This document shows positions 12,763 to 14,976 of a stretch of 64,000 bases of DNA, one piece after another. A program made the position numbers and the translations under genes. How positions within the stretch are numbered: position 1 is the first letter of the stretch; every line of letters begins with the position of its first letter. This DNA comes from Actinomycetota bacterium (GTDB taxonomy: Bacteria > Actinomycetota > CADDZG01 > WHSQ01). The notes beneath the pieces are model-generated. The model had not been told where the DNA came from. It searched no databases and was given only the letters and a program-made list of their open reading frames with translations. The DNA lies in the NCBI GenBank assembly GCA_050694275.1, contig JBOGXF010000053.1:8382-72381 (forward strand). The letters run 5' to 3'.

Positions 12763-12857
12763 GTTTCCTTCCCTTGAACGGACTAGTGCACTGGGACTAG
12801 TCACCACGTCATATATCGGCAGCAAGGGCGGGAAGCTATAGGACCTACGATTGAGCC

Positions 12858-13076
12858 ATGGACGCGCGTTCGATCGGCACGATCGTCATGATCGTGGGAC
12901 TCGGGGCCCTGCTGGTCGGGGGCCTCATCCTGACCGGGGCGCTGAGCTGGTTTGGCCGGCTACCGGGCGACATCCGCATCGAGAACGAAGGGAGTCGCAT
13001 CTACATCCCGATCACGTCGATGTTGCTGATTTCGGCCGCGCTGACTCTGATCGTGAGTCTTTTCCGGCGCCTATAA
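12858..13076 (+). CDS. Small membrane protein, DUF2905-like
   Basis: 72 aa with two hydrophobic helices flanking the GRLPGDIRIE motif that I recall as characteristic of DUF2905. Confidence 0.6.
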   Translation: MDARSIGTIVMIVGLGALLVGGLILTGALSWFGRLPGDIRIENEGSRIYIPITSMLLISAALTLIVSLFRRL

Positions 13077-13133
13077 GTTTCGGCACTTTGACAACAGCGC
13101 ACGGCGAAGCCGCCTCTGGTCAAAGTGTCGAAA
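13076..13133 (+). repeat. 58-bp palindromic element, copy 1
   Basis: AGTTTCGGCACTTTGAC-N24-GTCAAAGTGTCGAAA. It matches 14228-14285 at 55 of 58 positions in the same orientation. The outer stem is about 15 bp, and there is an inner CGGC-GAA-GCCG hairpin. Confidence 0.85.
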
Positions 13134-13142
13134 AAACCGAGC

Positions 13143-14099
13143 TCAGGGAAGCGGGTTGGGAACCAGACTCGCGGTCGCCAGTGGAGCCCCGGCGATCTGC
13201 AGAATGCGATCGATGTCGGTCCCTGCAATGAACGCAGGCAGATATCTCGTCCCCACGACGAGGTGGGTGAGGTTCCCCACCGCGTCGCCGGCCGCGGCTC
13301 TGACTCCTGAGCCCGAGTCTCCCGGCGATGCGGCGCCGTCCCACCCGTATGCGTTCGCCTCGGTGCCTTCTTCTCCGAGCCACGTCACCACGCCGGGCCG
13401 GGCGGTCCCCCCGGTGCCCACGACGAGACCGTGACCGACGTGGAGGATCGGATCGGGGATGGCCGGGGACTTGGAGCCGGTCGGTCCGGCGACGATCGCC
13501 ATCGAGGGGTTCACGAACTCGACCATCTCCGGATATATCTCGATGAGGGCGAAGTCGTCGCCGATATCGTTGTCGACGCTCGTGACGGTTGTCCCGATGT
13601 TCATGATCACGCCGGGCAGAGCGAGGATTGTGACCTCTTCGCCGACCTCGGCGCAGTGACCGGCGGTGCCGATGTAGACGCCGGACTTCGAGGACTGCGG
13701 TCCCTTGCCCTTGCCGTTGCCGCCGCCGTTACCGTTCCCCGGGCCCGATGTGGTCGCGCCATCGGGGTCCCCAAACACGAAGTTGAGGGTGCACCCCGAG
13801 GGCGAGATCATCCACGAGCCGGGTCTGATACCGGTGAACAGCAGCGCGCTGTCGACCTCGACGCCTTCCGGAATCGGGATGCTCTTGCCCTGCTTGCCGG
13901 CTCGCACCGCGCGCTCGTGCAGCGCCGGTGTGTACCAATCCGGGGAGGGGGCCTTGAGCGGGATGGCGTATGCGCCGCCCCCGAGATCCACCGTGCCGTC
14001 CGGCAGCTTCCGGGCAACCTCGTCGGTGCTTGCCGGAGCTGCCGCGGTCACGGCGAACAAAGCGATCACGGCGGTCAGTACGGCAAGGCTACGGCGCAT
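13143..14099 (-). CDS. Secreted chymotrypsin-fold (S1, alpha-lytic-like) serine protease
   Basis: The catalytic triad context is GTAGHCAE (His), GDDFALIEI (Asp) and SPGDSGSGV (Ser). The signal peptide MRRSLAVLTAVIALFAVTAAAPAS is preceded by GAGGGGG. I chose the internal ATG at 14097-14099 of ORF 13143..14246. A Gly/Asn-rich insert GNGNGGGNGKGKG is present. Confidence 0.75.
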   Translation of the reverse strand: MRRSLAVLTAVIALFAVTAAAPASTDEVARKLPDGTVDLGGGAYAIPLKAPSPDWYTPALHERAVRAGKQGKSIPIPEGVEVDSALLFTGIRPGSWMISPSGCTLNFVFGDPDGATTSGPGNGNGGGNGKGKGPQSSKSGVYIGTAGHCAEVGEEVTILALPGVIMNIGTTVTSVDNDIGDDFALIEIYPEMVEFVNPSMAIVAGPTGSKSPAIPDPILHVGHGLVVGTGGTARPGVVTWLGEEGTEANAYGWDGAASPGDSGSGVRAAAGDAVGNLTHLVVGTRYLPAFIAGTDIDRILQIAGAPLATASLVPNPLP

Positions 14100-14227
14100 G
14101 AAACCCCCTCGGGTCATCGGTCGTGGCGGGATTCTTTGGTCACTGTTTGATACGAATTCGACTGTAACCGGGAAAGTTCCTTCCCCGGTACAGGACAAGC
14201 GAAACAAGGGAGGAGCCATGCTCAAGG

Positions 14228-14285
14228 AGTTTCGGCACTTTGACAACAGCGCGGGGCGAAGCCTCCTCTGGTCAAAGTGTCGAAA
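14228..14285 (+). repeat. 58-bp palindromic element, copy 2 (inside the 5' region of mscL)
   Basis: Same element as 13076-13133, offset 1152 bp. It differs at 14253, 14254 and 14264. The changes at 14254 and 14264 hit the two sides of one inner-stem base pair (C-G becomes G-U). Confidence 0.85.
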
Positions 14286-14684
14286 GTAAGGGAGTTCGTG
14301 ATGAGAGGAAACATCCTCGAGCTCGCCGTCGCATTCGTGATGGGGGTCGCGTTCGCGGCGGTAGTTCAGTCCTTCGTGAACGACGTCGTCATGAACCTCA
14401 TCGCGGCGATCTTCGGCGAGCCCGACTTCAGCGACCTCACTTTCGGGATCGGTGACGGCGTCATCGCCTACGGCGCGTTCCTGACCGCGCTCGCCAACTT
14501 CGTGCTCGTCGCCTTCGCGCTCTTCGTGATCCTCAAGGCGGCGGAGAGGGCAAAGTCGCTGCGCAAGACCGGTGCAGAGGCCCCCGCGACGACCAGGCCA
14601 TGCCCTTACTGCGTCACCGGCATCCCGGTCGAGGCGACGCGCTGCCCCGCCTGCACGAGCGACCTCAGCAGAGCTCCCGCCTGA
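14277..14684 (+). CDS. mscL: Large-conductance mechanosensitive channel MscL with a C-terminal CxxC..CxxC extension; start codon uncertain
   Basis: ..KVREFVMRGNILELAVAFVMGVAFAAVV.. matches the canonical MscL S1/TM1 region, and ..GAFLTALANFVLVAFALFVILK.. matches TM2. Possible starts are GTG 14277 (inside the repeat hairpin), or GTG 14298 / ATG 14301 behind the SD AAGGGAG. See the findings for the interrupted upstream start at 14218. Confidence 0.85.
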   Translation: MSKVREFVMRGNILELAVAFVMGVAFAAVVQSFVNDVVMNLIAAIFGEPDFSDLTFGIGDGVIAYGAFLTALANFVLVAFALFVILKAAERAKSLRKTGAEAPATTRPCPYCVTGIPVEATRCPACTSDLSRAPA

Positions 14685-14697
14685 ATCAAGCCGCGGG

Positions 14698-14976
14698 CTA
14701 TGGATAGTAAAGGGAGCGAATCTGCTGATCGAGCGCGTACTGCGCGTCCGCCTGAGCGCGAGCCGGGGGCTCCTCCTGTCCGCGCAGGACCTTCAGTGCG
14801 AGCTCGACCGAGCGCTCGTTGATCGCGCCGTAGCCGACGAACTGGAAGGGCTCGATCGCCTGCGGAAGCGACGTCCACGCGATCGGCGTCGTCGTGCACC
14901 CGAGACAGAACGGGTTGGCTCCGGGGCCGAACTCCGTGTGATCCGGCGCGCGCGGCTCCCCCGCCCAGTGGATCAC
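14698..14976 (-). CDS. Hypothetical 92-aa protein coupled by GTGA to the S8 peptidase gene (alternatively a frameshifted C-terminal extension of it)
   Basis: Strong GC3 coding signature through (M)IHWAGEPRAPDHTEFGPGANPFCLGCTTTPIAWTSLPQAIEPFQFVGYGAINERSVELALKVLRGQ.. The GTG at 14974-14976 overlaps the S8 stop TGA at 14973-14975, a junction type used repeatedly elsewhere in this window. Confidence 0.45.
   Translation of the reverse strand: MIHWAGEPRAPDHTEFGPGANPFCLGCTTTPIAWTSLPQAIEPFQFVGYGAINERSVELALKVLRGQEEPPARAQADAQYALDQQIRSLYYP

Follow-up and report, generated by a model that had tools for sequence, protein, structure and literature searches.

Probable insertion of a small hairpin repeat into the first codons of mscL in an uncultured actinobacterium

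The mscL locus and its interrupted 5' end

The window, by which the whole analysed stretch of 64,000 nucleotides is meant, belongs to the genome of an uncultured actinobacterium that was recovered as a 2.83-Mb bin (G000; 210 contigs, 66% GC, 99% complete) and whose MscL has its closest named homologues in Thermoleophilia and Solirubrobacterales. At the locus studied here, the sole long open reading frame (ORF) with high GC3 extends from 14277 to 14684. It encodes the channel protein MscL, as its residues 3-102 match positions 4-107 of the Pfam profile PF01741 (E=1.5e-28, 100 bits). The match spans the first transmembrane segment, the loop, and the second transmembrane segment (TM1-loop-TM2), and the first positions of the profile are absent. 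At its other end the protein carries a zinc-ribbon-like tail of the form CPYC-N13-CPAC (14601-14654). A CxxC...CxxC tail is also found in the homologues P0002, P0003, P0004, and P0007, which share 58-62% identity and include a protein of a named Thermoleophilia isolate; judged from these sequences, the tail is a clade trait and not peculiar to the MscL of the window.

The beginning of the gene is found in a different reading frame from that of the MscL body. The Shine-Dalgarno (SD) sequence at 14206-14215 pairs with the 16S tail at -11.8 kcal/mol in an accessible site and is followed by an ATG at 14218 that encodes MLKEFR. This frame enters a hairpin at 14230-14285 and ends at the TAA at 14287-14289, which leaves a 23-codon stub. 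The initial 14 nt of the stub (ATGCTCAAGGAGTT) are collinear with intact mscL in two related alleles, and a Pfam search with the stub ORF returned no match. The native N-terminus M-x-x-KEF-[KR]-x-F no longer lies directly behind the SD sequence, because 56 nt and a frame shift part KEF from REF. As 56 equals 2 modulo 3, the stub is read in one frame and the channel body in another. For the mscL 5' region as a whole, the folding energy is -47.3 kcal/mol (z=-4.0). Further possible start codons are a GTG at 14298 and an ATG at 14301. The preliminary description of this DNA had located the SD sequence, ATG 14218, the TAA, GTG 14277, GTG 14298, and ATG 14301 correctly to the base. The features are collected in Table 1.

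Table 1. Features of the mscL 5' region, the two element copies of the window, and the parallel copy in an ABC ATPase gene
Feature	Position	Strand	Basis or remark
Element copy 1, 64-nt insertion: core 13078-13133 plus AAACCGAG	13078-13141	+	Absent from L053 and L054, present in L055
Native mscL SD sequence, AAGGGAGGAG	14206-14215	+	Retained in the empty alleles L053 and L054
Stranded native start and stub ORF, MLKEFRHFDNSAGRSLLWSKCRK, 23 codons then TAA	14218-14289	+	ORF reading
Element copy 2, 56-nt hairpin core, TTTCGGCACTTTGAC-N26-GTCAAAGTGTCGAAA	14230-14285	+	Alignment, folding, shuffles
mscL as publicly annotated in this genome, 135 aa (P0121), MSKVREFVMRGN...	14277-14684	+	GTG borne by the element
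CGA AAG TAA at the stub end, possible -1 slip site (A-AAG beside the stop) into the MscL frame	14281-14289	+	Speculative, from sequence alone
AAGGGAG-N6-ATG, internal SD-like sequence and native Met10 codon, opening the 127-aa MRGNILELAV...	14288-14303	+	Duplex and accessibility scoring
Element copy sense to the gene, after codon 4 (MGEE) of the ATPase of a BMP-type ABC transporter operon	C129:8485-8542	-	Locus L004/L048

A small hairpin repeat and its empty sites

The hairpin in mscL is one copy of a dispersed repeat. A second copy, 95% identical, is found in the window at 13076-13133, between the convergent stop codons of a DUF2905 gene and a trypsin-like peptidase gene. The 56-nt core has a folding energy of -30.9 kcal/mol (z=-6.0), its 15-bp arms form terminal inverted repeats, and it contains no ORF. 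An alignment of 11 copies yields a 24-pair hairpin in which 96.6% of the cells are paired, whereas sliding the partners gives no more than 51%, and compensatory changes on both sides were observed at four of the 24 base pairs. The palindromic element proposed in the preliminary description is thus real, given about 13 copies in the genome, this covariation, and two copies in the window against none in 100 shuffles. One G.U pair does not vary among the 11 copies. A strand-specific RNA function, at which this pair hints, was considered as the main reading and set aside, as the copies lie both sense and antisense to their neighbours.

The orientation of the copies relative to neighbouring genes is mixed, and so is their placement. 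Three copies directly follow stop codons (copy 1, C84, and C36), copy 1 and the C68 copy lie between convergent genes, the C159 copy is found in a 5' UTR, and three copies (mscL, C129, and C178) are located within reading frames. An antisense copy (C50:18386-18438, locus L009) lies 7 nt upstream of the 16S rRNA 5' end (AGAGTTTGATCCTGGCTCAG), which places it inside the pre-rRNA leader. The C178 copy (C178:13981-14039, - strand, locus L007) is read through in the open frame of a 573-aa ORF (..LDEALRFRHFDNGAGRSPLRSKCRKCSGRKPRVVVTIVWDG..), where it links segments that resemble the C-terminal and N-terminal regions of phosphodiesterase/AlkP-type proteins, and the ORF may represent either an in-frame fusion or a pair of genes that the insertion has brought together. 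The genome also contains another family of hairpin repeats, about 55 nt in length (ATGAGTGCAAAGG...CTTTGTGCTCAC), with at least 13 copies, for example at C68:2751-2867, C4:236-303, and C36:13758-13830. One of its copies is nested in the first element (in C68) at TTTGACA/ACAGCG, with a possible CA duplication.

Among 60 genomes of the same family one further copy was found, in another genus, and a pattern scan of 185,579 GTDB species genomes and JGI metagenomes detected no copy beyond that same locus, which belongs to one organism represented in two collections. The extra-genus copy (G050 C116:5715-5767, L049/L056, with the same locus in L057) is 94% identical and is located immediately 3' of a stop codon and is followed by another GC-rich hairpin; a relic and a transfer are both conceivable.

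Searches for a known family or a mobilizing enzyme were negative within their scope. Rfam 15 covariance models, run over 12800-14800 at a permissive threshold, gave chance-level matches only (E>2), none of them over the element. A profile search of the genome for Y1_Tnp/RAYT (PF01797) returned no match while its controls were positive, and no GTAG or CGTC tag is conserved in the element alignment (A1). When a parent IS was sought through arm pairs at IS-scale spacing, the arms were paired at 40 nt only, in a fragmented bin of the kind that can lose IS copies. A target-site duplication was sought in three comparisons of filled and empty sites, which gave a possible AAG/AAG (ATPase), AAG/AAA (copy 1), and none at mscL, so that no consistent rule emerges. 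A sigma-70 promoter within the element had been considered on account of its TTGACA and was rejected, since no -10 box lies at 16-18 nt. The element has the traits of a selfish, non-autonomous, MITE/REP-like repeat that is private to its lineage, and the family itself is undescribed, though its kind is known.

The empty sites were provided by close relatives. The 90% protein cluster of this MscL comprises four sequences: P0121 (135 aa, MSKVREF..., the call of the window itself), P0123 (127 aa, MRGN..., from the NCBI assembly GCA_975304845.1), and two proteins of 136 aa from Logan contigs, P0001 (MLKEFREFVMRGN...) and P0122 (MLKEFREFVLRGN...). The contigs of the cluster are syntenic, with GGDEF, DUF2905, trypsin-like peptidase, mscL, and S8 peptidase genes in this order. 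The contig that encodes P0001 (L053) shares 95-97.5% DNA identity with the window and the one that encodes P0122 (L054) about 85%, and both lack both copies of the window, whereas an independent NCBI assembly (L055, 99.92% identity over 6.4 kb) carries both. In L053, mscL begins with ATG CTC AAG GAG TTC followed directly by AGG GAG TTC GTG ATG, and the window is longer by a net 56 nt. Deleting 56 nt from the window gives MLKEFREFVMRGNILELAV, which matches the N-terminus of P0001 exactly, as had been predicted for the uninterrupted ancestor. Likewise, the window is longer by 64 nt (13078-13141) at the junction of the DUF2905 and peptidase genes.

The exact boundaries of the mscL insert can be placed in two ways, at 14233-14288 relative to L053 (TTC AGG, with TTC now TTT) or at 14236-14291 relative to L054 (TTT CGG). 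The imperfect repeat AAGGAGTT/AAGGGAGTT at the junctions, together with the AAGGAG/AAGGGAG that had been taken for a duplication, turned out to be the native KEF/REF codon pair, the two halves of which also occur in the empty site, and not a target-site duplication. More distant relatives (35-64% identity, 26 loci) all begin with M(x)LKEF[KR]xFxLRGN right after the SD sequence. An intact start at the gene is therefore found in the near alleles as well as in the 26 distant loci, and the uninterrupted MLKEFREF... alleles in syntenic contigs bear out the earlier suggestion that the element had inserted into the gene. We consider it highly probable that the element was recently inserted between codons 5 and 6 of mscL, with the junction falling at the fifth or the sixth codon depending on its placement. 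On these alignments, the insertion is younger than the split at about 96-97% identity.

Possible expression of mscL and a parallel case in an ABC ATPase gene

By the insertion of 56 nt, the native SD sequence, the ATG, and five codons would have come to head the 23-codon stub. A scan for promoters and terminators returned none of either, and no U-tract follows the hairpin, so that read-through is expected; transcription would run on from the native promoter through the hairpin. Three starts can then be compared. The native ATG 14218, with the SD duplex given above, is open. GTG 14277 has essentially no SD sequence (-2.7 kcal/mol) and is buried in the stem (P(unpaired)=0). ATG 14301 is preceded by AAGGGAG at a 6-nt spacer (-8.5 kcal/mol), and its start codon is 0.76-0.95 unpaired.

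It had been suggested that a replacement start evolved after the insertion. GTG 14277, however, is part of the right arm of the element (GTCAAAGTG) and is found in almost every copy, and AGG GAG TTC GTG ATG (14289-14303) is native, corresponding to Arg6-Glu7-Phe8-Val9-Met10 exactly as in L053. Everything from AGG 14289 onward is native, including GTG 14298, ATG 14301, and the AGGGAG, while the A at 14288 belongs to the insertion. Since all restart codons are either borne by the element (GTG 14277) or were there before it (Val9 and Met10), no replacement start evolved.

Two routes to a channel protein may be envisaged. In route (a), ribosomes would initiate independently at ATG 14301 behind AAGGGAG, giving a protein of 127 aa without MLKEFREFV and hence without the amphipathic N-terminal helix. 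In route (b), ribosomes translating the stub would melt the stem, terminate at the TAA, and reinitiate close by, either 13 nt back at GTG 14277 (135 aa, MSKVREFVM..., with MSKV replacing MLKEF) or 12 nt ahead at ATG 14301. Public assemblies of what is essentially one organism disagree on this point, as one gives 135 aa (GTG 14277) and the other 127 aa (ATG 14301), and neither annotation recognises the stranded native start.

In E. coli, every N-terminal MscL truncation from d2-4 to d2-7 raises the gating threshold, and none protects a strain devoid of channels against osmotic downshock (PMC4917966). By analogy, the 127-aa form is expected either not to function or to be very insensitive. In the 135-aa form REF is preserved, the first Phe is lost, and the Lys is shifted, so that this form is altered at best. 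An altered 135-aa or a truncated 127-aa protein, i.e., a weakened or dead channel, is thus the most likely outcome. Such a loss is affordable, since the genome has two MscS-family genes and mscL is missing from 12 of 41 relatives. The body of mscL shows no decay, with four synonymous changes and one conservative K to R change on this lineage. This fits continued selection on a working channel and a very recent insertion alike, and the changes are too few for a branch-wise dN/dS to separate selection from recency. On this reading the cell tolerates the insertion, which we take for an ordinary recent event and not for an evolved control device.

A comparable case is found in the ATPase gene of a BMP-type ABC transporter operon. 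Its native start lacks an SD sequence (ATG GGC GAG GAA, MGEE) and now heads the stub MGEEVSAL, whose TGA stop lies in the left arm of the element, within CTTTGAC, and overlaps a TTG of the element (TTGA). This TTG is the sole in-frame start that gives a complete ABC domain, and both public annotations start the ATPase there (MTTARGKAASGQSVEKGHGGAPLVALEG...). In relatives the ATPase is uninterrupted, beginning with MGEEGRVNDEAGRTAAPLV... (88% identical) or MAEEGSS... (same 90% protein cluster).

Thus, two of the approximately 13 copies sit among the first five codons of their gene, and each is preceded by a purine-rich GGAG or GGAAG. These early-codon sites may reflect a target preference. More simply, they may be a matter of survivorship, since an insertion there keeps the ribosome loading site and leaves a start codon reachable by coupling. 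Such survivorship would, in principle, back route (b).

The two genes offer a datable natural experiment, with filled and empty alleles in one species-level lineage. In both, the native start region (SD, ATG, and stub) is described as kept, and the sole usable restarts are carried by the element or follow it closely. The two genes show how selfish palindromes of very small size can persist in 5' coding ends and re-code protein N-termini. For annotation, caution is advised, since the public starts that give 135 aa and 127 aa are equally unverified. For MscL biology, the locus provides a natural variant of the N-terminal helix that is known to be essential for tension sensing. No new mechanism is revealed by these observations.

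Alternative readings and known systems

An alternative to a tolerated insertion is that the stub ORF and the hairpin form a selected leader-peptide device that tunes mscL translation, in which translation of the stub would open the stem and license a restart. The layout would permit such coupling: ribosomes loaded at the strong SD sequence and the ATG run into the stem, the stub terminates 13 nt past GTG 14277 and 12 nt short of ATG 14301, and the ATPase gene shows an overlap of stop and start (TTGA). However, the arrangement is missing from the 97%- and 85%-identical alleles and from the 26 relatives examined, and its absence from the 97%-identical relative in particular argues against a selected regulator. 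Moreover, the hairpin is a generic selfish repeat that occurs in unrelated contexts and in both orientations, and no mscL-adapted change has occurred since the insertion. We therefore regard this regulatory reading, which the preliminary description had offered beside the insertion, as unlikely.

The insertion might also act as a reversible on/off switch. Precise deletions are known to be frequent where direct repeats enclose a long palindrome, and the palindrome in mscL is flanked by 6-nt GGAGTT repeats (14226-14231 and 14291-14296). Slippage between them would delete 65 bp and restore an in-frame MLKEFVMRGN. As the repeats measure a mere 6 nt and no such allele is found among the cluster members, such switching appears very unlikely.

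A further possibility is that the mobile hairpin itself causes recoding, through a 65-nt hop or a -1 slip, and so yields a near-native channel; in a milder version, the family would be a portable coupling cassette whose stop and start codons in the arms let it live in the first codons of genes, as it does twice here. If recoding were true, the locus would parallel T4 gene 60 and the mitochondrial byp elements on a bacterial chromosome, but we hold this proposal to be highly improbable. For mscL, the hop would lead from GAG-UUU (14227-14232) to GAG-UUC (14292-14297), and these matched codons (GAG 14227/14292, UUU 14230/UUC 14295) enclose a very stable hairpin beginning at the would-be take-off site. 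They follow trivially, however, from the native KEF-REF repeat. Neither a stop nor a rare codon follows the take-off site (the next codons are UUU CGG CAC), and no nascent-peptide signal is known in a nascent chain of just 4-5 residues. The -1 slip would occur at A-AAG-UAA (14283-14289). An A-AAG with a stop right behind it, a context classically prone to shifting, is present at the end of the stub, but the product would bear a 24-residue N-terminal extension. Besides, the gap consists of a generic repeat for which there was no selection at mscL, and recoding without stimulators is usually about 1% efficient or less. That either event yields a near-native channel is hence far-fetched.

Finally, an assembly artefact had been named as a possibility in the preliminary description. 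Such an artefact, a repeat-induced misjoin or a collapsed repeat made conceivable by a repeated element in a 210-contig metagenome bin, is effectively excluded, because both flanks of the element are mscL and collinear with the intact alleles, and the same structure is found in a further Logan contig and in a second, non-identical assembly (L055), whose independence follows from a K to T difference within another element copy (the ATPase N-terminus, P0245 versus P0124).

Recent insertion of a selfish repeat, the reading we prefer, can be set against several known systems. The coding gap of T4 gene 60 and the mitochondrial byp elements are inserts of about 50-65 nt that form hairpins within a coding sequence, with matching codons on either side. 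The mscL insert shares the hairpin and the matching codons, but the defining stop-codon context at take-off and the nascent-peptide signal are missing. REP/REPIN sequences, which are mobilised by RAYT (Y1) transposases, resemble the element in being imperfectly palindromic, with one mismatch or wobble (G.T) conserved, in their mostly extragenic location, and in the lack of a clear target-site duplication. In contrast to them, the element carries no GTAG or CGTC tag, its genome has no Y1_Tnp gene, and its copies are single instead of forming inverted doublets.

The mycobacterial MIRUs, reportedly described by Supply et al. in 1997 (Mol Microbiol), are said to be intergenic repeats with small ORFs that overlap the flanking stop and start codons and thereby preserve translational coupling. 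The TTGA overlap at the ATPase and the 13-nt GTG...TAA overlap at mscL are similar in this respect, although MIRUs are tandem 40-100-bp units between operon genes and not hairpins in the first codons of a gene.

Bacterial MITEs and other small repeats of palindromic type (Correia/CREE of Neisseria, ERIC, RUP, and BOX; reviewed in PMC10969869 and PMC2229807) are likewise short, non-coding, and hairpin-folding. The element is MITE-like in its 15-bp terminal inverted repeats and its dozen dispersed copies, mostly at gene ends, as well as in its presence or absence between close strains and the nesting of one family in another. It differs in being, at 56 nt, at the very small end of the size range, in having no clear target-site duplication or matching parent IS, and in being private to one lineage of uncultured Actinomycetota (probably Thermoleophilia).

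The Rickettsia palindromic elements (RPEs), likewise, are selfish palindromic repeats that survive in ORFs and alter the protein. They measure 100-150 bp, lie in frame, and add a peptide, whereas the element in mscL shifts the frame and severs the native start; RPE-like in-frame read-through is seen in the C178 copy only. In its effect on the genes that it enters, the element resembles other intragenic insertions of small repeats, such as those of RPE, ERIC, and Correia (PMC10969869).
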